Positions 6,251 to 57,032 of a DNA stretch of 64,000 bases are shown in pieces (within the stretch, counting starts at the first letter, position 1; the number at the start of each line of letters is the position of its first letter). The position numbers and the translations under genes were made by a program. This DNA is from Mobula hypostoma (Eukaryota): positions 34,784,001 to 34,848,000 of the forward strand of contig NC_086108.1 in the NCBI RefSeq assembly GCF_963921235.1, in the 5' to 3' direction. A model generated the notes under the pieces. The model worked only from the letters and a program-made list of their open reading frames with translations. It did no database searches and was not told where the DNA came from.

Positions 6251-7740
6251 AAATGAAAGTGATGGAAATACCCAGGTAACATTTATCACCCTGAGAGTCC
6301 CTTGCCGCATCCAGAGCATGTCCAAACTGCTGAAAACTTAGGCATTTTCCGTTCTTGTTTTTGATTCAAAGCATCTGCAGTATTTTCCTCTTCTATCTCT
6401 ATAAAGGTGCAGGTTCATCTTCCAATGGACAATCATCAAAATGATGCCAGCTTCATAACAACAGCATCTACATACGAATATAGAGTATACCAAGCTCAAA
6501 GCAATTACCCTATGGCTTTCCTGCTGGAAAATGGAATGCTCTGTGTTGAATATCCACTGGAATGTTAAGATGTTTCCTGGGAATATACAACTTTTTTAAA
6601 AAAATTATAATATTTTTGTGGTTATGAAATTCCTGGAGTGATTTAAAGGAAATCCAATTTGACTGTGTGATTTGGCCCAGCTTATGACTTGTGCTTTGTT
6701 CCAGCACTGTTGCTGTGGCAACAGTATTTTTCAAGCCACGAACAAGGTCAATCTCCATTGAGAGAGCCCTTCATGGTATTACAGATGAATCCACATTTTC
6801 TGGATTCTAAATAACATCAGCACCTTTAACGTGCCTTAACTCTATACTCAGAAGAGTGTGGAACGATCCAAGCTTTGTTTTGGGGCATTTGAAAATAGAG
6901 GATTAGATAGTAGAATGTGTAGAGATTATACCCAAAAGTGGCCACAAGATTCATAGCGGTGAGAAGAAGGTAGTGGAGTTTGTGTTGAATGTCACTGACC
7001 TGGCAGTGCAGCCCTGAACCTTGTCTTCAAATAGCCGGTGTATATCTCCTATACCTCCAGCAATTCTTGTATTCACTTCTGATTTCCAGAAGACACTGCA
7101 TTATTTCCAGATTTACATCTGGCACGAGATTAATATGGTGGGCATTATTTCTAAACAGGATGGAGGAATCGAGGACTAGAGATCAATGGGTATATAGGGG
7201 AAGTGAAGTATGACATGTGTGAATCGTCTATTACACAGTTGGATTGCCTTGCCTGCAGATGTGGTGAAGGCTGGTTCCATGGTGACCATCCGTATGGAAC
7301 TCAATAAATACATGGTGGGAGAAATTTTCAATGGTTCCTATGTGGAACTAATAAGTTGCTCTGGTAGGGAGCCGGTATGGACACGATGGGCTGAATGTCC
7401 TCTTTTGCTGTAATCATTCTATGATTCTAAAGTGTACCAAGCAAAACCTAGTTCACCAAATGGATGGTTTTTAAAAAATGCAAGAAGGAATGGAGAGAAA
7501 GAAGAAATGCTTTCTGAAAATGATCAAATAGTCACGTTGTGATTACAAGAGGGAATTGGATTTGAGCCTGAACTATATCGGAAATCATAACACCTTAAAA
7601 CATACAAGCAGAATTAGGCTGTTCAGTCTTTGGCGCCTGCTCCGCCATTCGATCATAGCTGACCCATTTCCTTCTCAACCCCATTCTCCAGCCTTCTCCC
7701 CAATAAGAACATAATACATAGGAGCAAAATTAAATCCCAA

Positions 7741-7920
7741 ACACGAGGAAATCTGCAGGTGCTGGAAATTCAAGCAACACACACAAAAAATGCTGGTGAA
7801 CACAGCAGGCCAGGCAGCATCTATGGGAAGAGGTGCAGTCGAGGTTTCAGGCCGAGACCCTTTGTCAGGACTAACTGAAAGAAGAGATAGTAAGAGTAGT
7901 TCACCTGCTGCGTTCACCAG
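7741..7920 (-). mobile_element. Short Penelope terminal-repeat insertion with a small inverted tail
   Basis: Same terminal sequence as the 28511 element; 13 bp TSD AATTAAATCCCAA at 7728-7740 and 7921-7933. Confidence 0.85.
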
Positions 7921-21450: not shown

Positions 21451-21970
21451 GGATCTGAGGGCACGGCCTCAGACTAAATTGGACATCTCTTTAAAACTGA
21501 GATGAGGAAAGATTTCTCCAGCTAGATGGTGATAAACTTGTGGAATTAATGTCCAGAAGGCTTTGTAAGTCATGAACTTGGGTGCATTTAAGACAGAGGT
21601 TGATAGATTCTTTATTAGTAAAGTGATTAAGAGTTACAGGGAGAAGAAAGAAGAATTTATTTTTTAAACTCAGCCATAATTGAATGATGGTCCAACTTCA
21701 ATGAGTCAAAAGGCTTAATCTGTGCTTCTATATCTTATGGCCTTATCAGCTAATTCAGAACCCAGAGAAAAGGAGTGGAAGCATGTCATCCTCAATGCAG
21801 GAACATCTAAAAAGTAGTGTATTTGCAGGGGACGTCGCGTGATGACATGAGATTGAGACGTGTAAATCCAGCTCTCCCGCAACAAGTCAGTAAAGTACCG
21901 TTTAAACAAAACAAAGTTAGTAAATATTTTCTGAAAACTATTTATAAACTTTGTAAGATTACTTTACGAT

Positions 21971-23105
21971 ATGCCTCCTAAACCGCAACAAAAGAAGTCT
22001 GCTGTTGCGAAGCAGCCGCGAGACGGGAAGGAAAAAGGGCCTACTGCAACGATGAAGCCTCAGACTCAGGTTGGATCTCCTTTGGTAGAACAGGGAGCAA
22101 CGGCGGTGGCAACGGTTTCTTCGAAGAAGACACCGGTAATGCGCAAGCGCAAAGAAGAGCGCATGCGCAAACCGACACAACACAAACTACAAGAACCGAC
22201 AACCACTGCAATTGAAAATGACTCAGAGTCAGAATCGGATTCCGCAGAGAACATAGATGAAGAAGAGGAGGAAGAACTGGAAGCGATTGGAAGTAAAGGA
22301 GATGATAGTGATATCATCTCCTTTACTTCCAGAAGCTATATTGCAATTAACGGCTGAATTAAGAAAAGTAAGAGAAGAACTTAGAGATACGAAGATGTGC
22401 TATGATAAAGTTATGGCAAGAAAGGACAAAATGGATAAGAAGCTTCAGAAGATGGAAAGAGCAATGGGGCATATGAATGATAGAGTGGAAAAAACAGAAA
22501 ATGATTTGCTTGTCTGGAATTCGGAAAGAAACCGACTCTTGGAGAAAGTGGACATGTTGGAAAATTTTAGTAGACGTAATAATATTAAAATTGGTGGTCT
22601 TAAAGAAGGTATGGAGGGCGATAAACCAATAGAATTTTTTCAAAGATGGATCCCGGATGTTTCGCAAATGGAAGAGGAGGTTCGATCAATTGAAATTGAG
22701 CGGGCACATAGAGCTTTAAGACCAAAACCAAAAGATGACCAATATCCACGATCGATTTTAATAAAATTCTTAAGATTTCAAGACAAGCAAAGTATTCTAC
22801 AGGCAGCTACTCGAGCTGCCAAAGATAGAAAAGGGCCATTGATAATTGGAGAGAGCAAAGTTTTTTTCTGTCCTGATATAAGTTACGAACTTTTGAAGAG
22901 AAGGAAGAAATTTAATCCAGTGAAAAAAACCCTATGGGAGCATGGTTATCAATTTACACTGCGTTATCCTGCAACTTTGAAGATTTTTTTGTCTGGTGGA
23001 GAAAAAAGATTTTTTGATGATTGTCAGAAAGCAGAGCAGTTTGTGCGAGATTCTCTGAAAACTCACCAGACACAAGAACAAACCCAGGAGAGCGAGATAG
23101 ATTGA
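21971..23105 (+). pseudogene. L1 ORF1 (coiled coil-RRM-CTD), frameshifted near 22320
   Basis: Overlapping frames 21971-22357 and 22257-23105; motifs LENFSRRNNIKI.GL.EG, IERAHR and YPATL. Confidence 0.9.
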
Positions 23106-23573
23106 AGATGAAGATTGGGTTAGAGAATGGACTTGATGGATTTTTGAAGCGGTATGAATGTATAAATATATTATTAATTATACGAGAGGGATAAGAAAGG
23201 TTAAAACTGGAGGAATATTAGTTGGGAATAGTAATACTAATTTTGTCTATATGTATATAATGTTTTTTTTTGCGGGGGAGCTGGAAGAAGCACTGATCGA
23301 TTGCTACGCTATCATGTGTGCAAGCGTGGCTTTTGCCATGACCCGCAAAATGGAGGGGGGTAGTGTTGTGTATCCTTTCGTTCACAACATTAGTGGGGGG
23401 GTATTTTGCTTTTTTCTTTTTTTGTACTTTTTCTTTCTTCTTTTTTCTTTCTGCCTGGAAGGTTGTGAGGGAGACACATAGCAACATGGTGAGGTTTAAA
23501 GAGATTCCCCAAGGAACTATGAAAGTTGAGAAGATAAATAATGTTTTAGATTGGAGTAACTTTGTGAAGTATA

Positions 23574-26500
23574 ATGACTAATTTATTGAATTTTTTGAGT
23601 TTTCATGTTAATGGGCTTAATGGACCAGTGAAAAGAAAAAGAATCTTAACACATATTAAAAAAATGAAGATAGATTTAGCTTTTTTACAGGAAACGCACC
23701 TAACGGAAACAGAACATCAGAAACTAAAGAGAGATTGGGTGGGTAGTGTTGTTGCGGCTTCATTTAATTCAAAAGCGAGGGGAGTAGCAATTTTGATCGA
23801 TAAAACGTTACCAATTAGAATACAAAATGTAATAATTGATTCTGCGGAGAGATATGTGATTATACATTGTCAACTTTTCTCTGAATTATGGACTTTTATG
23901 AACATTTATGCACCAAATGAAAATGATGCAAAATTCATACAAGAAGCTTTTCTGAATTTGGCGGATGCGCATGAAAAAATATTAATTGGAGGAGACCTTA
24001 ATTTTTGCTTAGACCCAGTCTTAGATAGATCAACCAAGGCTGTTATAAAATCGAAGGTAGTAAATTTAACTTTATCATTGATGAAGGATTTAAATCTGAT
24101 TGATATATGGAGAAGAATCAATCCTAAAGAAAGAGACTATTCGTTTTACTCCCATAGACATAAAACTTTCTCAAGGATAGCTTTGTTTCTATTATCAATG
24201 CATATTCAACACAGAGTGAAAAATATGGAATATAAAGCAAGAATATTATCAGATCATTCCTCTTTATTAATGACAATAATAATGGCTGATAAGGAAGAAG
24301 TGGCTTATAGATGGAGATTTAATTCAATATTATTAAAACGTCAAGATTTTTGTGATTTTATGAAAAAGCAGATTCAATTTTTTTTGGATACAAATTTTCA
24401 TTCAGTGGATGATAAATTTATATTATGGGATGCGATGAAAGCATATCTTAGGGGCCAGATAATAAGTTATACGTCTAAAATTAAGAAAGAATATATGGCA
24501 GAACTAGATCAATTGGAAAAAGAGATTACAAAAATAGAAAAAGAATCTCAAAGATATATGTCAGAAGAAAAACGAAAACAACTTGTCAATAAGAAGTTAC
24601 AATACAATACGCTTCAGACATATAGAACGGAAAAAGCAATTATAAGAACTAAACAAAGGTATTATGAGTTAGGTGAGAGAGCACATAAAATTCTTGCCTG
24701 GCAGTTGAAAACAGAACAAGCTTCCAAAACAATAAATGCAATTAGAACAAGGGCAAATAAAATATCTTATAAACCTCTTGAAATAAATGAAACTTTAAAA
24801 AATTTCTATTCTGAATTATATCAATCAGAATCCCAAAATGATGTTAATGAGATAGAAAAGTTTTTATCACAAGTTTCTCTTCCAAAATTGAATTTGGAAG
24901 AACAGAAGGGATCGGATATGCCTTTTACATTAAAAGAAGTTGAAGAAGCATTAGGATCACTCCAAAGTAATAAATCTCCAGGAGAAGATGGTTTTCCACC
25001 TGAATTTTATAAAAAATTTAAAGATTTATTATTTCCTCTTTTTATGGAACTAATATGTCAAGCAGAAAAAATACATAAACTTCCAGAATCTTTTTCAACA
25101 GCGATTGTAATAGTACTGCCAAAAAAAGACAGAGATCCTATGAAACCAGCATCATATAGGCCTATTTCTTTATTGAATACGGATTATAAAATAATAGCAA
25201 AAATTTTATCGAATAGATTATCTAAATATTTACCAAAATTAATACATATGGATCAAACAGGATTTATTAAAACTAGACAATTGGCAGATAATGTAACTCG
25301 GCTACTCAGTATAATTCATTTGGCACAAAAAAGGGATGAGAAGAGTATAGTAGTAGCTTTGGATGCAGAAAAAGCATTTGATAGATTAGAATGGGATTTT
25401 TTATTTAAAGTACTAGAAAAATATGGGTTAGGAACATCTTTTATAAATTGGATTAAAACTTTAAATTCTAACCCTAAAGCTAAAGTGGTGACAAACTCTC
25501 AAATTTCAACACCATTCCAGTTAAAAAGGTCAACTGGACAAGATTATCCACTATCACCTGCTTTATTTGTATTGGCGATAGAGCCATTAGCAGAACTAAT
25601 TAGAATTGATCCAGATATTATGGATTTTAGAGTTAATCAGGAGGAATATAAAATTAATCTTTTTGCCGATGATGTTTTGATCTATTTAACAAATCCACAA
25701 TATTCGTTACATAAATTATCTTCTAGATTGGATGAATATGGGAAGGTATCAGGTTACAAAATAAATTGGGATAAAAGTGAAATTTTACCACTTACTAAAG
25801 AAGACTATAGTCAATGTCGATCAGTAACCCAATTTAGATGGCCGGTAAATGGTATAAAATATTTAGGTATAAGACTTGATAATGATCTAAAGAATTTATA
25901 TAAATTTAATTATTTACCACTGTTGGAAAAAATTCAAGAAGATCTTGACAAATGGATGATATTACCAATAACATTAGTAGGTAGAGTCAATGTTGTAAAA
26001 ATGAATATATTTCCTAGATTACAGTATCTGTTTCAAACATTACCAATACAATTGCCACAGAAATTTTTTCAAGAGTTAAATAAATGTGTGAGAAAATTTC
26101 TTTGGAAAGGTAAAATGTCAAGAATATCATTGGAAAAATTGACATGTAAATTTGGGTTAGGAGGGTTACTACTTCCAAACTTTAAAAACTATTATAAAGC
26201 AAATCAACTTAGATTTATTGCATCTTTCTTCGATGACCGAAAACCAGCATGGATTAAAATAGAACTAGACGAGATAGGAGAAAATAGACCTGAAGATTTT
26301 ATATATAAATGGGAATCTAAATTGATACGGGAAAAGAAAGAATCTCCTATATTAACACATTTGATTGATCTATGGAATAAGATAAATGTTGATAATGAAA
26401 CACAGAAATCTCTATTAGCAAGGAGACCTTTGTTCTAAAACAGACTTATTCCTTTTACAATGGACAATCAACTTTTATATAATTGGTACCAAAAAGGGAT

Positions 26501-27350
26501 TAAATTTATAGGAGACTGTTTTGAACGAGGTATATTGATGTCATTTGAACAATTAAAGGATAAATATAAAATATCTAATAATACTTTCTTCTGTTACTTT
26601 CAATTAAGGGCTTACTTAAAAGGTAAGCTGGGTCAAACAATGTTTTTGCCAAAACCTAATGACATTGAAACTTTAATTCAAAAAGGGAAAATTAAAAAAT
26701 TTATTTCTTGTATGTATAATTTGATTCAAGAACAGACAATTAAACAAGGAACCCATAAGTCAAAGCAAAAATGGGAAACAGATCTGAATATTATTATTGA
26801 TGAAACAAATTGGTCAAGACTTTGTCTTGACAGTATGACAAATACAATAAATGTTCAACTTAGATTAGTACAATATAATTTTTTACATCAATTATATATT
26901 ACACCGCAAAAAATAAATAGATTAAATTCAAATTTTTCTGATAAATGTTTTCGGTGTAATCAAGAAATTGGTACTTTTTTACATTCTACTTGGTCTTGTT
27001 TTAAAATTCAACCCTTTTGGATAAATTTAAGAATCTTATTGGAACAAATTACTGCAACTCAACTTCCACATAACCCTGTGTTATTTTTATTAGGTGATAT
27101 TGAAGGGATAAAACCGAAACTTAAATTGAATAAATATCAGAAAGAATTTATAAAAATTGCATTGGCAGTAGCTAAGAAGACTATAGCAGTTACTTGGAAA
27201 TCTGATTCATATTTAAGTATGGATCATTGGAATAATGAAATGACTAGTTCTATTCCACTTGAAAAAATTACTTATAATTTAAGAGATAAATATGTAACAT
27301 TTTTGAATATTTGGCACCCTTATTTACAAAAGATAGGATGGTATATTTAA
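23574..27350 (+). pseudogene. L1 ORF2 (APE endonuclease, RT, CCHC) with one in-frame stop at 26436-26438
   Basis: The 954 aa and 296 aa ORFs share a frame; motifs LQETH, NIYAPN, GDLN, SDH, SPGEDG, LDAEKAFD, FADD and C-x2-C...H...C. Confidence 0.95.
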
Positions 27351-28227
27351 GTGCTCCGATAAAGACTTTGGTCACTTGGGGAAAGTAACGAATAATTATA
27401 CCAAATTCATTTTGAATCCCATGGAGCATGTGGAAACCTCCCAATAACCAGGCCATTCTTTTTTTTTTCTTTCTTTTTTTTTCTTTTTCTTCTTTTTTAG
27501 GTAAGACTATATATGGGGGGGAGGGTAGATTCTTTTTTTTCATGTATTCTTTTTGAAAATTCAATAAATATTATATTTTTAAAAAGTAGTGTATTTGCTT
27601 AATAAAACAATGTTTTAGAAATCCCACTGATGTTGATGTCATGTAGGCCCCATTGTAGCGAACGCAAACTAGGTGCTCAAGAGAGTTTTACAGAGAGCAG
27701 CACTAGTTTAAGTAGCATTGGACTTGCTCTGATGGAGAAAAAATTCTCCATTCAGAGGGCAGTAACACTTTGAAGTTCTGCAAGGCTCTGTGCTCAGGCA
27801 GACAGCAGTAGGTTTTCAGGGAAACATGGAGCATTGTGCTAGTGTGGGAAAGTTCAGCTGCATTGCAGAGCAGGGACACAGGGCCTATTTCTGTTCGTGT
27901 GCCTCATGGGTAGAACCTGGAACTGTACGGAAACTGAAGTAAAGACGATTGATCATTTAAAGGTAAAGAAATGGGAGACAAACTAAGATTGCTTATTATG
28001 ACTGGGGTAGATGAAGAGTGCTGTGGAAGGCTCCAGATGTTGACTTCTTGGGCTGAATAGCCTGCTTCAGTACTGCACACTCCTTGCTAGTGTAGCTGTG
28101 TAAAGTGGTGCAACCTTGTTAAGGACGAGGAAGGATGAGCTGTCATTGGAGTCGGTTTTAGTTCTGACAGTGTGCCATTGAAATCCATCTGCTCACAGTC
28201 TTTTCTTTTTCTCACTCCCTGCACCAG

Positions 28228-28369
28228 AGTCAAGCAATGAGGATTGTGCGGACTATAGGACAGGCTTTTGAAGTGTGCCACAAGCTGAGCCTCCTGCACA
28301 CCGAGCAGAATGTACGCCGAGAGGAAGACCAAGAATGTGAAGAGAGTGTAGAAGCCACCAGTGTTTCAG
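28228..28369 (+). CDS. NOS1AP: Next coding exon of NOS1AP/CAPON, end of PTB domain
   Basis: Pyrimidine tract plus cag acceptor and donor CAG|gtatgt. 142 nt, phase 0 to 1: [47 protein letters not shown]. Continues the frame of the 4021 exon. Confidence 0.95.
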
Positions 28370-28606
28370 GTATGTTTTATTTACTGTATGCTCCATTCAA
28401 GGGGTAAAATTCTGTGGTATCTGTCCAGTGTGGGAAAGGTTGGCAGTCTGCTTCCATACACAGCAGGAAGGAATTAGCAAATGTGATATATTATAAACAC
28501 ATAAAACCCAAACAACAGGAATTCTGCAGATGCTGGAAATTCAAGCAACACACATCAAAGTTGCTGGTGAACGCAGCAGGCCAAGCAGCATCTGTAGGAA
28601 GAGGTG

Positions 28607-28644
28607 CAGTCGACGTTTCAGGCCGAGACCCTTCGTCAGGACTA
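28607..28644 (-). ncRNA. Minimal type I hammerhead ribozyme motif, intact
   Basis: Minus strand TAGTC-CTGACGA-A-GGGT CTCG GCCT-GAAAC-GTC-GACTG: full core, helix II, ACGT palindrome, GUC cleavage triplet and helix I. Confidence 0.85.
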
Positions 28645-29503
28645 ACTGAAGGAAGAGTGAGTAAGGGATTTGAAAGTTGGAGGAGGAGGGGGAGATCCAA
28701 AATGATAAGAGAAGACAGGAGGGGGAGGGATAGAGCCAAGAGCTGGACAGGTGATTGGCAAAAGGGGATACGAGAGGATCATGGGACAGGAGGTCCGGGA
28801 AGAAAGACAAGTGGGGGGGGACCCAGAGGATGGGCAAGAGGTATATTCAGAGGGACAGAGGGAGAAAAAGGAGAGTGAGAGAAAGAATGTGTGCATAAAA
28901 ATGAGTAACAGATGGGGTACGAGGGGGAGGTGGGGCCTGAGCGGAAGTTAGAGAAGTCGATGTTCATGCCATCAGGTTGGAGGCTACCCAGATGGAATAT
29001 AAGGTGTTGTTCCTCCAACCTGAGTGTGGCTTCATCTTTACAGTAGAGGAGGCTGTGGATAGACATGTCAGAATGGGAATGGGATGTGGAATTAAAATGT
29101 GTGGCCACTGGGAGATCCTGCTTTCTCTGGCGGACAGAGCGTAGATGTTCAGCAAAGCGGTCTCCCAGTCTGCATCGGGTCTCGCCAATATATAAAAGGC
29201 CACATCGGGAGCACCGGACGCAGTACCGTACCCCATCTGTTACTCATTTTTATGCACACATTCTTTCTCTCACTCTCCTTTTTCTCCCTCTGTCCCTCTG
29301 AATATACCTCTTGCCCATCCTCTGGGTACCCCCCCCCTTGTCTTTCTTCCCGGACCTCCTGTCCCATGATCCTCTCGTATCCCCTTTTGCCAATCACCTG
29401 TCCAGCTCTTGGCTCCATCCCTCCCCCTCCTGTCTTCTCCTATCATTTTGGATCTCCCCCTCCCCCTCCAACTTTCAAATCCCTTACTCACTCTTCCTTC
29501 AGT

Positions 29504-29541
29504 TAGTCCTGACGAAGGGTCTCGGCCTGAAACGTCAACTG
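29504..29541 (+). ncRNA. Minimal type I hammerhead motif with one helix I mismatch
   Basis: TAGTC-CTGACGA-AGGGTCTCGGCCT-GAAAC-GTC-AACTG; G to A change immediately after the cleavage triplet. Confidence 0.75.
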
Positions 29542-29979
29542 TACCTCTTCCTACAGATGCTGCTTGGCCTGCTGCGTTCACCAGCAACTTTGATGTGTGT
29601 AACACATAAAACCCAGTGGTTTTTAAAATAAATGTACCTAAGGCCTGAAACTTATTGAGCTGATCATGATTCTTTTTAAATTTTAATTCCTAAACTTCTT
29701 TGAACTTCCCTAAATTTATAAACGCCACAGAGAGGAGGAGAGCTGAAATCTTCAGTCTGAGTCACCACTGAATCCGTGCTCCCCTTGACCATTGTTTTAG
29801 GCTGTTTGCAACCATTATAACCTTGAGCAGCTTCCAACCTCACCTGAGATCCTTGCAAAATACTGCCTATGATTGGCCTGATGACACCAGACTGCAATTT
29901 CACACCCACATTGCTGAAACCCTTGATCTTGCCTTCGTGTTTCACAGACTCTGGGTTGAATCTTATCTCCCCAAAATTA

Positions 29980-36690: not shown

Positions 36691-38295
36691 TGTGGTGCTA
36701 CTTTCAATGAATAAAGTGTCTTAGTTTGACCTAAAAATTAAGCTTAAGACCTACACAAACATTTAAATTTAATTGAGCTCATGTTTAATGACAAGACTCT
36801 CAACTGTAATATTTCCCTTCTGCCTTCTTACTTGGCTAAGCTCATAAACCATCTTGCACTCAGTGATCATTCAATCATACCTGGAAGTACAGTTGACCAT
36901 AAAGATGCCAGGTGAAGCAGACAAAAAAAAGATAAGCAGAGGATAGCCAAATATCTAAACCAATGTTTGCTCAGCGATTTTAACTAACACTGCTGCTTAG
37001 ATTGATGGACTAAACCTCAGTAGCACAACTTACTGATTCACCAATTGCACCCTTAAAAAATTAGCTTCCTATATCATTGATTATGCTGCCAAGTTTCCAG
37101 TCATACCCAGCTTGGCATTGCTGAATGCATATTGGCGGCAGTCAGTGCCAAGGAAAAGCTGTCGCTCCATTGTGTGGGTGTCCATTTACCTCATTAGTTC
37201 TTGCAGAGATCCACTGGAGCAAAATATTATTGTTTATTGGTGCTCTTTGAAGTTTGCTAATTATCTCTCTAATGCATACATCTGGCATTTGCTGAATCTT
37301 AGGTGCAATGTTTTGCTTACTCTGGGTGAATGCTTAATTTCTAACTGAGCATTAGATTATTATTGGGTCATATAATTTGTTAAAATTTGTGGCATTCAGT
37401 TTCATATAGTTCCCATCTAGGACTTTTAATTATTCTTTACTAAATTACATGCTCTCAGATTTTTATATCTTCGACCTGACCGGAGAGGGGAGAAGAGAGA
37501 ATAGCCAATTTGTGTGAGGCCTTTGATGATGCTGGCTGCTTAGTGAAGCAGCGAGGAGTGTAGCCTGAGCTCATGGTTTGGAGGCCGGTTTCTGTGATCT
37601 AATCATTTATCACAAATACAGAGTCAAATAGGTCTGTGGAACAGGAGCCACTTCACTGCTACCTTACAGGGACAACCGTCTGGAGCAGACTATGGGAGCT
37701 GCTCGTTTCTGGTCACTTCTCCGCTATTTCCCCACTCCCTGTAGATGTGATTAGGCAGGGCTGCCACACTGGAAAGACCTCAGACAAAACAACCTCAATC
37801 CAAAGGAAGTCTAAAATTAGAGGGCAGAGGTTTAGGATGAGAAGGGAAAGCTTTAAAAGGGAACAGTTGCTTCTTCACATAGAGGTTGGAGTGTATATGG
37901 AATGAACTGGCAGAGGAAGTGGTCGGGCAGGTACATTTATAATGTTCAGTACACATTTAGACAGATACATGGATAGGAAAGGTTTAGGGGAATATGGGTC
38001 TTACAGAAATGGGACTAGCTCAAGTGGACAACTTGGTTGGCGTGGACAAGGCGGGGTCAAAGGGCCTGCTTCAGGGCTATTTCACTCTGTAACTCTTAAG
38101 ATGATCTGAAGACACCACAAAGGACCTGGACATCTTTGCGCACCGCTGTACAACAGTGGCTTCATGCCATGGGCCTGATACTGCTTCTCGTGGAGCAGGG
38201 TTCAAGGAAAGCCGTCCAGCTTGGCGCTTGTAAGTTAGTCATGTGACATGCCGTTGGACTCAGCCACAAGTAGAAAAACATGTTTGTGAAGGGTA

Positions 38296-38474
38296 AACAA
38301 CAGGAATTCTGCAGATGCTGGAAATTCAAGCAACACACATTAAAGCTGCTGGTGAACGCAGCAGGCCAGGCAGCATCTCTAGGAAGAGTCCTGACGAAGG
38401 GTCTCGGCCTGAAACGTTGACTGCACCTCTTCCTAGAGATGCTGCCTGGCCTGCTGCGTTCACCAGCAACTTTA
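38296..38474. mobile_element. Miniature fold-back Penelope terminal insertion
   Basis: Arms ~38338-38388 and ~38427-38477; 16 bp TSD ATGTTTGTGAAGGGTA at 38280-38295 and 38475-38490. Confidence 0.92.
38387..38422 (+). ncRNA. Minimal type I hammerhead motif, intact, in the hairpin loop
   Basis: AGTC-CTGACGA-AGGGTCTCGGCCT-GAAAC-GTT-GACT; GUU fits the NUH rule; AACGTT palindrome. Confidence 0.85.
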
Positions 38475-40301
38475 ATGTTTGTGAAGGGTATTAAGCTTTA
38501 TATTTTACAAGATTCTATTTAATGCAACAGTTCACCCAGTTGGAATCAAAAGAGATTGTGTGCACAGGAGTTAAGAGTCACTGTTAAGGGCAGTGACTGT
38601 TAAATGGCTGTGTGCAATCTGTACACCTCAGCAGGTGATTAATGCTCCATTTCTTACCTTTTCAGATGCTTATCTGTCTCTTCATTTGAACAAATACCTG
38701 TCCTTTACTGAGTGTTGGGTGCCAGCCAGTGTAAATATCCTATTTGATTTGCTGTGCTGAACACTGAACCATTACTATTAAAACCAAACATCTGAATAAC
38801 ATTATAGTGATGCACTTACTCTGTTCACACAGACCATTGTCATGCTACATGGAAAGAAGAAGGCACCATTGATTTGTAGGGTTGGCTGCCATTAACGTAG
38901 AGGAGGGCCATTCATTTTGCTTGTTGGGGTAGGAGATCTGATAGGGTTGCTCTGCTCATTAGAGGAACAGAGAGGTGGAGTAGCAGAGATCAGGGTTGCT
39001 TCATCAATTGGGAAATTTGAAAAACAGACCCACAGGTGAGTAGCTGTAGTTAATGGCCCTCAAAACCCTTTAGCAAATCAGCGGGATAGAGCCAGGCATG
39101 CTTCCAGCTTCAATTTCCCAAAGTACTAATGTTTTTAAATTGCTTGGAAATGGAAGCCATGGGTTCTACAATGTCCAGAGTCATGGGCAACATTAAAAAG
39201 TGTAGGCTTCCTACAGATGTTCAGGTTTTCTCCCATATCCTTACAATGAGCTGGTTGGTAAATTAATTCTCTTCTGTAACTAGTCACAACTATAGGTGGG
39301 CAGTAGAATCTTGGGGGGTGGTGGAATTGGTTACAAGGATGAGAGGGAGATCAAGTTAATTGGCTTGCTTTGAGAGCTGACATTGACTCAGTGAGCCAAA
39401 TGGCTTCCTTCTATGTTGAAAGAAAATATACTGTATGTAGCAATAAGTAACAGGGATTGATGCAGGGGCTGATGACAGCCCTTGAGTTGTCTGCATTGCG
39501 CTTCAAAAGTTCAAAATGGTATTTTTAACTTCTTATATTTGACAGCACACTTGGGGGCTTCAGCTAGCTCCAAAGTCCTTTGTTTGTTCACAGAAGTCCC
39601 AATCAAAAGGATTGCTGCAAGGAAGGCTTAGGATTCTTGTAAAAGTACATAGAAAGCTATTGATGTCTTCTGTTGATCTCAGCTCTGGAGAACATAGGGA
39701 AAATCTGGGATGGATATCATCAGAGAGCCATTCAGCTCAGGACTCCCACAGGAGTTCATAGGTCAAGAAAAAATGTTCTCCATGCTATTATCACGCGAGG
39801 CAGCCAATTTCCATAAGACAAAGGTGCAGAAGTCGGCTATTCGGCCCATCGAGTCTGCTCTGCCGTTTTATCATGAGCTGATCCATTCTCCCTTTTAGAT
39901 GTGGTTGTCTTGTTCACTATAGGAAATCCAAGCAATCCAGAGATTTGCCATTGATTTTTGTTCCAGGTTGAGAAAGAACATCATCCATTTGGAACTCACA
40001 GCAGCAAAATTTTAGTTTCCTACATTCCACAGCCACATCAAAGATTGGCGATAATCCTTCAACCAGATACACATCCCTCATTTGCAAATACCAAAGTCCT
40101 TTCTAGCTGTCCAATAGTGACACCTGAAATAATTACCAAGTCTGCCAAGTGAGATATTTTCTAGGTTGGAAAAAGTAGATCTCCTTAATTTCTACATGGT
40201 GGATAGTCACATGCCACCAAACTTATAATTCTACCTTTGTTCTGAATGTCACTCTATCTAACAGTGATGAATCCTTTACATTGTCCTTGTATCTGCACCA
40301 G

Positions 40302-40459
40302 CTCTGCATCAGACTGGCATAGAGAAGGAGGATTCAGAAGAGACTGATATCGATGCTGTCGATCACCCTCTACATGATGGTACAGAGGCCCACTTCAGCC
40401 GGGGCGTGACTGACTTGGACGCAGTACGAAATGAACCGGATCTTCATAAGATCAAAAAG
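40302..40459 (+). CDS. NOS1AP: Following coding exon of NOS1AP/CAPON, post-PTB linker
   Basis: Acceptor atctgcaccag and donor AAG|gtaacc. 158 nt, phase 1 to 0: (A)LHQTGIEKEDSEETDIDAVDHPLHDGTEAHFSRGVTDLDAVRNEPDLHKIKK, containing the NOS1AP motifs EETDIDAV and FSRGVTDLDAV. Confidence 0.92.
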
Positions 40460-40893
40460 GTAACCTTAAAAACACTTTCTCAGGCACTCAGCACTTCCCA
40501 TGCGGGGACTGGCTGTGTTGATTCCCGGATCCATAGAAACCGCATTCCCCTTGGGAGAGCAGTTCTGGTGATAATCCCTTTTTAAATGCTTTTGCTGCCA
40601 TTTCCTAGGGGTCTATTTTCTTCTTCTCATTGACAAGATGACAAGCACATCTAATCAAGTTAATTTGCAATATCTTGAGAGCTGCTGATGCTTAGTTATA
40701 ATGTATATCTCTTGATAGCTACCCTTGTATTTATCCTAGGAGTCCGGGCAAAGGAGTTGTTTACCACAGCTTCAGAGGCAAATGAGTTTCCCTGTACCTT
40801 TGCAAAGGCTGCATGGGAGGTGCTGTCATCTGCCAGAACTGTCTGATTAGGACAAAGATCACCAAGGATCTAATCTGATCATTGTGGTGTTGA

Positions 40894-52710: not shown

Positions 52711-54769
52711 GCCCTGAAAAAAAAATCAGCAGTTTAATTAAGTAAGATGAATGTTGTACGGTGAGTACAGTATGTGGTTGGAACATCATCTTCATACTCT
52801 ACAGTTAGAGGTATTGGGATTCGGTTAGTGGTTTGGAAGGAAGATTTTGATTGATGTTGACATTTTGCGCAGAGGTTGTGGAAACATTAAATGGCTGAGA
52901 AGGATTGAAAACCTGTCTGTTTGGAAAGTAGCAGGTGAAATTTGCAGAGTTTCACAACATGCTGCTCCCAGCAAGTAGCAAAGTAGAAGGAACAGTTACT
53001 GTGCAGTGTTGCCCTGAGCCAGTACACCCTACAGCTAAGCAACCACGAAGATCAAAAGTTACACATTGTTCTTCAAAAAATTAATCTGATATTTCATAAA
53101 ACTCAGTGCCAGAAAGACAAGGCAAGAATGGTTGAGGGAAGTTAGTAGTTATGATTCAAGGTTTGTGTAATACTTTGGCCCACCCAGGTTTTGAAGCAAA
53201 TAATCTTCTGCCTCTTATGCCTTATCTAACTTGTTATGAAATTCATTGAGTGTTTTTTTATATGTCAAATGCCTTTCAGAGAAAGCCTTCCTTTTTCAAT
53301 AGGTTGTTCTCGGCATCAAAAATCCACAGTGACTGGAGGCATTTTTGAATTACCTTGAATCCTGCAATCTTTCAAGAAATTAAGGCTGACTTTATTCAGA
53401 CTGTGTCTTCTTTTCGTTGTAATTGTTGACAGTTTCCCACAGTCATCTATTTCCCTCACGCCAGTGAAAATGTTTTCAGTGACTGAAGTTGAAAACATGC
53501 ACTGCCTGGGCTGTAACAATTGCCACAACTCATAAACCTAGATTAAGCAATTGGCACTTTTGAGACCTTTCTGTAGCTGGTTCCCTGGTGTGCACTTCTC
53601 TGGTCTTTGGTTGCTATTGTATGTTCTGTTAACAGCACGGAAAGGAGGGAGAAAGCATAGAACAGTAAGGAAGGCCAGGAGTTCATAGGTTGTGTTTCCC
53701 AAGTCCACTGAGCCCCACACATTCTGGCAAATAATGGCTGCGTGAAGGTCCAAGTGGGACATGGGATTGTCCTGACTTACATTTCCCACAGCCCCAAGGA
53801 TTTCCCTTGAGCTTGAACCATTGAAAGGTTTGATAGGCTTAGTGTCATGCTTCTACTTTACTTCAACATTCCATTTCTTTTTCTTACGATTACTTGTCTT
53901 AAATTTTGGGAACTGGCATGAATTCTGCTATTTGCTTTTTTTTTGTTGCTGCTCAGCATGTTGGTCTAGTGATTAACACGTGGTTTTGTGGTGTAATTTC
54001 AATGTGCATTCAACTGTGTCATCCATTTGCAATGATGCACTTTGCTGATGCTATAGAAGGATAGGATAAAGACTATTGGCTGGAAATTTGATTGTGTGAT
54101 TCAGTATTCTACTCAATGTTATACAATTCTAAATTCTGAGTTATCTTGGGTGACAGATAATAACAACTGTTGTAAGGTAGTTTTGAGTCATTTGGAAATA
54201 GGATACTTCCCATCACCAGGCATCCTCCAGACTCTGATGTTGGTTACGTGCCTTGGCATGACTGGTAAAATAATTCCCATTGGAATGATTCTCCTTTTGG
54301 GAAGTTACAGTGAAAATTGAATGGAATTGCCAGGGAATGCCTGCCACTGGGTGTGATATGGTCTTTTAATACTGCCAAACCAGCCCATCTCAGTAATTCC
54401 TTGCTCCCCATCACCCATCCCAAGCCTGCATTGAAAGCTCAACATCAGATTGCCACCTCTTTTACCTGCTGGTCAAAATTTGTCCCACCCTCCCCTGTCG
54501 AACCTACAGCCAGAATCCACCTCCCTACACCCTAGAGCTCTTGGCTTGCTGGCCCTCTCCAGTTTTCATTGAAAATGTTCAGTGCTCTCCGCAGGGAGTA
54601 ATGGACAGTTGGTGGACAGCCCTATCAATACATATATACATGAAGACAGCAAGTATTCATGCTGGTTGGAAATGAACAAGGACAGCTTCATTAGGAAAAA
54701 GCCAGCTTCTAAAGATATAAAGCAGAATAGAAAATATCAGGATTTAAAATTTCCATTATTTCCCTCCTC

Positions 54770-56522
54770 TTCCATCTAGCTATCATCCTTATCACCTGTC
54801 CAACCTCACCTCTATCTACCTATCATCCTTATCACCTGTCCAACCTCACCTCCATCTACCTATCATCCTTATCACCTGTCCAACCTCACCTCCATCTACC
54901 TGTCATCCTTATCACCTGTCCAACCTCACCTCCATCTACCTATCATCCTTATCACCTGTCTGACACCACACCTCCATCTACCTATCATCCTTATCACCTG
55001 TCCAACCTCACCTCTATCTACCTATAATCCTTATCACCTGTCCAACCTCACCTCCATCTACCTATCATTCTTATCACCTGTCCAACCTCACCTCCATCTA
55101 CCTATCATCCTTATCACCTGTCCAACCTCACCTCCATCTACCTGTCATCCTTATCACCTGTCCAACCTCACCTCCATCTACCTATCATCCTTATCACCTG
55201 TCTGACACCACACCTCCATCTACCTATCATCCTTATCACCTGTCCAACCTCACCTCCATCTACCTATCATCCTTATCACCTGTCCAACCTCACCTCCATC
55301 TACCTATCATCCTTAGAAAGTGTCCAACCTCACCTCCATCTACCTATCATCCTTATCACCTGTCCAACCTCACCTCCATCTACCTATCATCCTTATCACC
55401 TGTCCAACCTCACCTCCATCTACCTATCACCCTCAGCACCTGTCCAACCTCACCTCCATCTACCTATCATCCTTATCACCTGTCTGACACCACACCTCCA
55501 TCTACCTATCATCCTTATCACCTGTCTGACACCACACCTCCATCTACCTATCATCCTTATCATCTGCCCAACCCTCTTCCATCTACCTGTCATCCTTAGA
55601 AAGTGTCCAACCCTACCTTCATCTACCCATCATCCTTAGCACCTGTCCACACCTACTCCTCCATCTACCTATCATCCTTAGCACCTGTCTAAACCCCTCC
55701 TCCATCTACCTATCATCCTTTGCACCTGCCTGACCACCCCCTCCATCTACCTATCATCCTTAGCACCTGCCCAAACCCCTCCTCCATCTACCTATCATCC
55801 TTATCACCTGCCCAAACCCCTCCTCCATCTACCTATCATCCTTATCACCTGCCTGACCACCCCACTCCATCTACCTATCATCCTTAGCACCTGCCCAAAC
55901 CCCCTTCTCCATCTACCTATCATCCTTAGCACCTGCCCAAACCCCCTTCAACATCTACCTATCATCCTTATCATCTGCCCAAACCCCCTTCTCCATCTGC
56001 CTATCATCCTTAGCACCTGCCCAAACCCCCTTCTCCATCTACCTATCATCCTTATCATCTGCCCAAACCCCCTCTCCATCTACCTATCATCCTTAGCACC
56101 TGCCCAAACCCCCTTCTCCATCTACCTATCACCCTCAGCACCTGCCCAAACCCCCTTCTCCATCTCCCTATCATCCTTAGCACCTGCCCAAACCCCCTTC
56201 TCCATCTACCCATCATCCTTAGCACCTGCCCAAACCCCCCTCTCCATCTACCCATCATCCTTAGCACCTGCCCAAACCCCCTTCTCCATCTACCCATCAT
56301 CCTTAGCACCTGCCGAAACCCCCTTCTCCATCTACCCATCATCCTTAGCACCTGCCCAAACCCCCTTCTCCATCTACCTATCATCCTTATCATCTGCCCA
56401 AACCCCCTTCTCCATCTACCTATCATCCTTATCACCTGCCCAAACCCCCTTCTCCATCTACCTATCATCCTTAGCACCTGCCCAAACCCCCTTCTCCATC
56501 TACCTATCATACTTAGCACCTG
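54770..56522. repeat. Minisatellite, about 43 units of 40-42 bp
   Basis: Left consensus CCATCTACCTATCATCCTTATCACCTGTCCAACCTCACCT (40 bp); right consensus CCATCTACCTATCATCCTTAGCACCTGCCCAAACCCCCTTCT (42 bp). Confidence 0.98.
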
Positions 56523-57032
56523 CCAGCTCTTGTTACACTCCCTTCCCCCCCATCACTTTATGTGCGGCCACCTCTACGCTTATCTTTCAGTCCAGATGAA
56601 AGGTTTTGAACCAAAATTTTGACTGAATATTCCCTTTCACAGATACTGCCTGACCTGTTGAGTTCCTTCCTTGAGAGCTTTATCTTTGTAACTGCTGATC
56701 CCTAAGTGCAATGTTTGAAATAAAAAAACAAATAAGAGAGTGCTAGAAATACTCTCCAGGCTACGGAACATCTGTTAGCGAGAGAAAATGAGAGCTGATG
56801 TTTCAGGTTCATCGTCTTTGCTCAGACTGGGAACAATTCAAAAGTCGAACATGGTCTTAAGTTGCAGAGAAGGGGCAAGATGGAAGGAACAAAGAGAAGG
56901 CCTTATGAGATCAAGTCAGATTGATTGACTTCCTTGGTGGTGGAAAAAGAAGAAAGAGGGAGACACAAGTGTCTTAGTTTCAAGTGGTTTCATCTGAAGG
57001 AGATGTAAGTTAAGATGAATGCAAATAGAGGA

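Follow-up and report, generated by a model that had tools for sequence, protein, structure and literature searches.

According to the accessible parts of the sources, Penelope-like elements (PLEs) that encode an endonuclease (EN+ PLEs) leave insertions in which a truncated copy lies in inverted orientation, a tail of 30-40 bp is present at one end, and the whole is flanked by a target site duplication (TSD) (PMC8557442, PMC3846280). For the minimal hammerhead ribozymes of metazoan PLEs, it is reported that cleavage by a single ribozyme is undetectable, and that cleavage by dimers or trimers is low (Cervera and de la Pena 2014, PMC4209133). In the case of Poseidon PAc from Anolis carolinensis, the protein of the element makes nicks in both DNA strands and extends them, starting at two adjacent internal positions, and the hammerhead of this anole PLE does not cleave unless PLE protein is added (Frangieh et al. 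2024, PMC11167929). The animal non-LTR retrozymes, as far as the available text describes them, are short, non-coding, PLE-derived sequences with type I hammerheads, arranged in head-to-tail arrays with one hammerhead for each consecutive unit (bioRxiv 10.64898/2026.07.22.740005). In the open-access literature, covered mostly at the level of listings, nothing was found that joins Penelope, hammerhead and elasmobranch, or that joins Penelope/Poseidon, shark and retrotransposon inverted repeats.

Here we consider an insert in the ray Mobula hypostoma, which lies in a window of 64,000 nucleotides (contig NC_086108.1, positions 34,784,001 to 34,848,000, forward strand); the coordinates below are those of the window. 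The insert is 179 bp long (38296-38474) and constitutes a mirror-image stump of the 3' end of a GIY-YIG PLE. It is bounded on the + strand by a left (38280..38295) and a right (38475..38490) TSD of 16 bp, which match each other exactly (100% identity). Its inverted arms, 38333-38388 and 38427-38482, are 56 nt long, 96% complementary and separated by a spacer of 38 nt; 48 bp of this pairing belong to the insert, while the final 8 nt of the right arm are TSD. When positions are counted from the outer end of the element (0), the hammerhead begins at -133 and its predicted cut falls after -102. The antisense arm (38296..38388, - strand) contains the outer 3' end of the PLE with its tail and runs to 93 nt upstream, i.e., it covers reference positions -93 to 0, with 95.7% identity to window positions 28510-28603, and ends 9 nt before the ribozyme cut site. 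Its unpaired portion (38296..38340, - strand) includes the tail, and in full-length copies the sequence on the tail side continues into the 5' part of the ORF. The sense arm (38387..38474, + strand) extends from the hammerhead 5' edge (reference -133) to an inner start zone, and the two arms have an AG microhomology in common at the junction (38387..38388, + strand). The size of the insert and the 16 bp of its TSDs are as given in a preliminary description of this DNA. The near-perfect arms of that description are present as well, with the reservation that they do not stop at the ribozyme but overlap its helix I by the letters AG.

The + strand fold of the insert has a z value of -11.3 in relation to 200 shuffles. 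Both arms carry the same rare variant (T38341/A38474), the A being found in 1/93 sampled arms, and this fits either one template for the two arms or later repair between them. The TSD starts (window 38475-38482) with ATGTTTGT, a 7/8 match with the letters that come next in the element, which suggests target-template pairing at the inner start site. In a closely related second organism, with 7 differences per 1,292 aligned letters, contigs reach 21-22 nt into the insert from each flank, and this suggests that the insertion is common to both organisms, at an overlap of 21-22 nt that is shorter than the bridging threshold of 31 letters.

The host gene is NOS1AP, a naming based on tblastn and on identity with a named Mobula protein, in that the downstream exon is 100% identical to Mobula carboxyl-terminal PDZ ligand of nNOS proteins. 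The upstream exon (~28216..28374) and the downstream exon (~40292..40462), both on the + strand and both with approximate borders from tblastn ranges, enclose an intron of ~11.9 kb with the insert and its hammerhead on the sense strand, and the earlier placement in a NOS1AP intron, on the pre-mRNA strand, agrees with these flanking exons. Protein atlas searches with the host exons returned only unnamed or sub-0.9 matches. Within the host gene, four hammerheads are oriented in sense and two in antisense, numbers too small for a test of selection.

The element from which the insert derives is abundant in the ray. In the 3.48 Gb genome, 19,515 exact matches to its 41-nt tail were counted, and the 36-nt hammerhead that carries a GUC triplet is present in 32,886 exact copies. 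Long genomic copies, as read by eye, contain an RT-like ORF with a YIDD motif, followed by a YIGET...R endonuclease motif. Among 30 loci obtained with a 5' ORF probe, five (L258, L261, L262, L266 and L269) have head-to-tail copies that span the whole reference, in the order GIY-YIG end, pLTR, hammerhead, tail and ORF start. The arm 3' ends form two groups, one at 0 to -7 and another at about -23 to -45. The PLE origin proposed earlier is confirmed.

A longer inverted copy of the same PLE, with the same architecture and longer arms, lies in the same NOS1AP intron (28510..29600). Its GIY-YIG end is encoded on the - strand (PF01541, E 0.0023 and 18.6 bits, under the curated cut-off of 22.6), and its sense hammerhead is spanned by an inverted repeat of 374 bp with 98% identity. 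The short direct repeat AACACATAAAACCC is seen on each side of this copy. Elsewhere in the window, at 7739-7920 on the - strand, there is another short PLE copy, whose hammerhead is degraded; it has a small piece in inverted orientation and what looks like a TSD.

The ray insert shares with EN+ PLE insertions, as these are described in the accessible parts of PMC8557442 and PMC3846280, an inverted, 5'-truncated copy next to a direct copy, a tail at one end only and a TSD; alike are also the palindromic or microhomology junction and, in the long copies, the ORF with RT-like and C-terminal GIY-YIG parts and the head-to-tail pLTR tandems. Judged from these sequence features, the insert is one of the truncated inverted insertions of endonuclease-bearing PLEs. 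It differs from those described in that its arms are only ~90 nt long, with the ORF body gone, and in that one arm ends before the ribozyme, so that a loop is left. With PAc the ray PLE has in common two adjacent RT start sites downstream of the hammerhead, which define the tail, whereas a genomic pile-up of cDNA ends at the hammerhead 5' edge, to be discussed below, is reported only for the ray when compared with the available text of PMC11167929. The insert resembles the non-LTR retrozymes in being short, non-coding and PLE-derived with a type I hammerhead, and differs from the arrays excerpted from that preprint by having one hammerhead in an inverted insert. Retrozyme identity was rejected, given a single inverted insert and the absence of a unit array from the inspected flanks.

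We regard it as very probable that the locus arose in one insertion, by two reverse transcriptions joined at AG, and that it is a very short inverted PLE copy with the hammerhead as an inactive passenger. The endonuclease would nick both strands 16 bp apart, a putative step that leaves the TSD seen here. Each nick would then prime cDNA synthesis, at the outer tail end or in the inner start zone, which lies about 25-47 nt further in, where the arm ends are observed; such priming is proposed by analogy with the anole PLE in vitro. One cDNA would end at the hammerhead 5' edge, the commonest arm end point among the copies of this PLE and probably the place where the template RNA starts, and the other at -93. 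The two cDNA ends would be joined via AG, and, as the antisense arm did not reach the ribozyme, the latter would come to lie in the loop by chance. CpG decay, presumably at a later time, would account for the change from GUC to GUU that is present in the insert. In the pre-mRNA, the hairpin should form at once, and cutting should be negligible, given the absence of loop 3 and of a free partner in the vicinity.

To see how the passenger is constructed, consider the + strand at 38387..38422, which is recognized as a minimal type I hammerhead without loop 3 from its sequence, its folding and the descriptor of PMC4209133, in the part available. Helix I is formed by AGUC (38387-90) and GACU (38419-22); then follow CUGACGA (38391-97), an extra A (38398), helix II (38399-402 with 38407-10, containing G10.1.U11.1), GAAA (38411-14), the palindrome ACGU (38414-17) and, as N17, a U at 38418. 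The core boxes, the potential for helices I and II and the palindromic 15.2-16.2 of the minimal type are all in place. In comparison with the metazoan PLE minimal hammerheads, as excerpted from PMC4209133, the ray subfamily mostly has G10.1.U11.1 instead of the conserved G-C (C in 9/102 copies), and the present copy has GUU instead of the GUC of the family and is enclosed by a stem of ~48 bp. An Rfam scan of the window at gathering thresholds gave zero matches.

The triplet CpG is changed from C to T at C17 in 12/102 sampled copies. The CpG changes in these 102 copies are asymmetric, with G16.2>A in 10 and C15.2>T in 2, and with C17>T in 12 and G>A at the next position in 4. This asymmetry, in small numbers, could stem from variants of the source element or from selection for inactive copies. 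A GUU triplet is cut more slowly than GUC. It belongs, all the same, to the cleavable triplets listed in the accessible part of PMC3138052.

The preliminary description had called the hammerhead intact, left unpaired by the arms and pre-folded, with a cut after 38418 that could sever the intron RNA. Its position for the cut agrees with the motif on the + strand and the minimal type is retained, whereas intactness is contradicted by the U at N17, to be set against GUC in the 32,886 copies. Nor does the fold leave the motif free of the arms: A38387 is taken up by the arms in the pair 38387-38428 (p 0.95) and G38388 in the pair 38388-38427 (p 0.79), and the helix I pairs have p values of 0.05-0.18. 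The probability of the open hammerhead is 0.0007 within the hairpin and 0.0105 in the isolated 36-mer, and in the model the energy of a fully strand-swapped double hammerhead exceeds that of two monomers by 10.3 kcal/mol, and its formation requires the opening of an arm stem of -90 kcal/mol, all according to nearest-neighbour folding, which omits tertiary stabilisation of the hammerhead core.

When the palindrome ACGU closes no loop 3, helix III can form only between two copies. In the active dimer, as we infer from the topology, the two strands of each helix I come from different copies, the 5' strand from one and the 3' strand from its partner. Given this swap of helix I between copies, a long stem within one molecule does not pre-fold the active form but locks the RNA as a monomer. 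Lack of loop 3, an opposing long stem and a decayed triplet together speak against a ribozyme pre-folded to cut the intron, and the hammerhead is predicted to be an inactive passenger that does not cut alone.

It could nevertheless be that the loop-displayed hammerhead cuts NOS1AP intron RNA in vivo, aided by PLE protein or by a partner hammerhead RNA. Since the anole hammerhead needs PLE protein for its cleavage (PMC11167929, in the part available), protein could alter the outcome in the ray insert as well, where all core nucleotides are present on the pre-mRNA strand, uncovered by any antisense copy within the insert, and where the genome holds tens of thousands of potential partner copies. 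Such cutting would have to proceed with a GUU triplet, with no loop 3 and with arms that compete for helix I, and it would take the swap of helix I between copies that topology and the excerpts of PMC4209133 imply for the active dimer. The sole other sense copy found in the intron (29505) lies within the 374-bp inverted repeat, and in the anole itself the cut site has no RNA-seq read ends, as far as the accessible text of Frangieh et al. (PMC11167929) goes. We judge intron cutting of this kind quite unlikely.

The preliminary description also held that the insert may be a minimal non-autonomous mobile unit, and that a junction unique in the genome would signify a one-off truncation, a repeated one a mobile family. 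The genome search that it called for does recover the junction elsewhere: the junction 20-mer has 67 genomic matches, as compared with 0 for the reversed control. Of 30 loci fetched with the junction and classified by eye, 14 have the architecture of the insert (class A), another 14 are joined at the second AGGAAGAG, the antisense arm having crossed the entire ribozyme (class B), and 2 are of other kinds; from 14/30 of 67 matches, the number of class A loci in the genome is estimated at ~30. Of the distinct class A loci, 25 in number, 19 carry the tail on the antisense arm, 5 carry it on the sense arm and 1 has it on both; the 19:5 skew is partly due to the use of a tail-left query for retrieving them. 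Fourteen of the 25 are flanked by exact TSDs, 12-16 nt in length. Two loci, L016 and L023, look like a single duplicated locus.

The class A loci have at least three diagnostic-site backgrounds, and, while loci differ from each other at these sites, the two arms of one locus agree in 43 of the 49 sites that were scored. Across the 25 loci, tail side and background both vary, unlike in a clonal subfamily, where the ends would be fixed and the diagnostic changes common to all copies. The junction has, furthermore, many neighbours. A short-gap pattern (0-15 nt) gives 565 junctions genome-wide, and among the first 100 of these listed there are, by eye, 3 of class A and 15 that are joined through a longer AGTC overlap (class C); the others comprise various joins and short insertions. 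Class C has 124 genome-wide matches, and of the 30 loci fetched (L211-L240), 15 have the tail on the sense arm, 14 have it on the antisense arm and 1 has it on neither.

A unit copied from a master cannot switch tail side, whereas joins made at insertion can place the tail on either arm. For the 179-bp sequence to be a non-autonomous ribozyme-bearing element, retrozyme- or MITE-like and spread from one or few masters, there speak the ~30 loci estimated to have the junction and an identity of up to 97% across the whole insert. Tail-side switching largely refutes such a spread, and backgrounds that differ between loci and usually match between arms, the continuum of neighbouring junctions and the absence of a tandem array of the unit from the inspected flanks also count against it, so that a mobile unit is very unlikely. 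The recurring junction is likely to reflect independent microhomology joins, made anew at each insertion, a case that the dichotomy between one-off truncation and mobile family leaves out and that the data favour.

In the class C insertions, helix I is continuous with the long stem, and the end of the antisense arm coincides with the cut site, inside the microhomology. The median pairing probability of helix I is 0.98 for class C (13/30 loci with intact core), as compared with 0.055 for 11 class A loci. According to the folding model, the pre-folded picture drawn earlier for the present insert fits class C better, and the argument from the dimer is even stronger there. Class C insertions are better test objects for a stem-mounted hammerhead. 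L040 and L240 each have arms that disagree with each other at two diagnostic sites or more, which looks as if two different RNAs had been copied.

Identical joins could in principle also be made by splicing. A longer inverted copy would be spliced between GAG|GTRCAG, which lies in its antisense arm, and a pyrimidine tract with AG immediately upstream of the hammerhead, and the product would then be copied back into DNA. The join is an exact GT-AG match, L013 and L136 are among the loci that fit an AG 4 nt upstream, and in D. virilis the Penelope intron terminates at the helix I 5' end (PMC4209133, in the part available). The AG microhomology, however, accounts for identical joins by itself, splice-like joins are a minority among many that are not splice-like, either tail orientation occurs with direct TSDs, and single-arm copies ending at -128 to -134 have no common upstream exon. 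With this evidence, splicing followed by copying back is extremely unlikely, and we retain the reading of two reverse transcriptions joined at AG.

That reading leads to the question of why arms stop where they do. Arm ends were collected from the tail-pattern loci L061-L130, from the neighbouring DNA of L161-L180 and from the window, after removal of the query, of matches below 90% identity, of arms cut by the locus edge and of duplicates. Of the resulting 131 arms, 19 end before -124, 59 at -124 to -161, 26 at -162 to -699, and 27 beyond. This means that 59 of the 112 arms that reach the hammerhead (53%) stop within a zone of 38 nt, as compared with ~5% per 38 nt further upstream, in samples drawn mostly from a single contig, over its first 10 Mb, with ends blurred by a few bases, as BLAST places arm ends imprecisely at palindromic junctions. 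The cut site itself (-99 to -104) is the end point of only 5/131 arms. The median stop is at -133.5 for arms from the outer start site and at -133 for arms from the inner one; a fall-off of RT with distance was ruled out, as the arms from both start sites end at the same coordinate. Long copies that reach the upstream hammerhead across the ORF stop there less often (4/16 and 0/10).

From a pile-up at the 5' edge, and not at the cut site, it follows that most templates are uncut there. We lean towards the explanation that many template RNAs start just upstream of the ribozyme, and that the RT, having started at the tail close by, runs off their 5' end. For Penelope of D. virilis, both a start site and an intron are placed just upstream of helix I in the part of the literature available. 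Alternatively, a bound protein or a structure may act as template boundary, or there may be a splice acceptor at this position; a shared upstream exon was not seen before single-arm copies ending at -128 to -134. Among the matches listed for the locus and for a full-length copy in presumed-RNA contigs (15 of 162 and 15 of 19), neither a start or end that could be read nor a GT..AG joint was found. An end pile-up at the hammerhead edge was not found in the open-access literature, again mostly at the level of listings.

The NOS1AP-intron insert is in itself ordinary retroelement debris. As the genome contains young copies in the tens of thousands, the role of PLE hammerheads and the start of the template RNA become a testable question in it, and the repeated loop-mounted hammerhead hairpins form a natural series for testing whether a locked helix I helps or blocks a dimer-type ribozyme. 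One may imagine, as an unlikely extension, a telomerase-related RT with a fixed template boundary at the hammerhead 5' edge and strong-stop cDNAs of ~130 nt, where twin joining seeds hundreds of stem-mounted hammerheads, of which the intronic ones, above all the 124 AGTC-joined, would conditionally cut host pre-mRNA when PLE protein or partner RNA is present.

Some further observations concern the element and the window at large. Nine of 30 ORF-start copies (L271, L272, L274, L275, L277, L282, L284, L289 and L292) end at +136 to +218 past the tail; many of them are pieces in the interior of composite insertions, and these ends may possibly mark a third RT start zone or a site of template switching. 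At G000:C2:157816648-157817613 the ORF-start pattern occurs four times with an exact spacing of 310 bp, a tandem array of a PLE fragment that is possibly retrozyme-like. The window also contains, at 21935-27350 on the + strand, an L1-type LINE recognized by eye, with ORF1-like frames and an ORF2 of 956 + 303 aa interrupted by one stop, and, at 54763-56524, a long tandem repeat whose units measure about 40 and 80 bp, with a strong strand skew.
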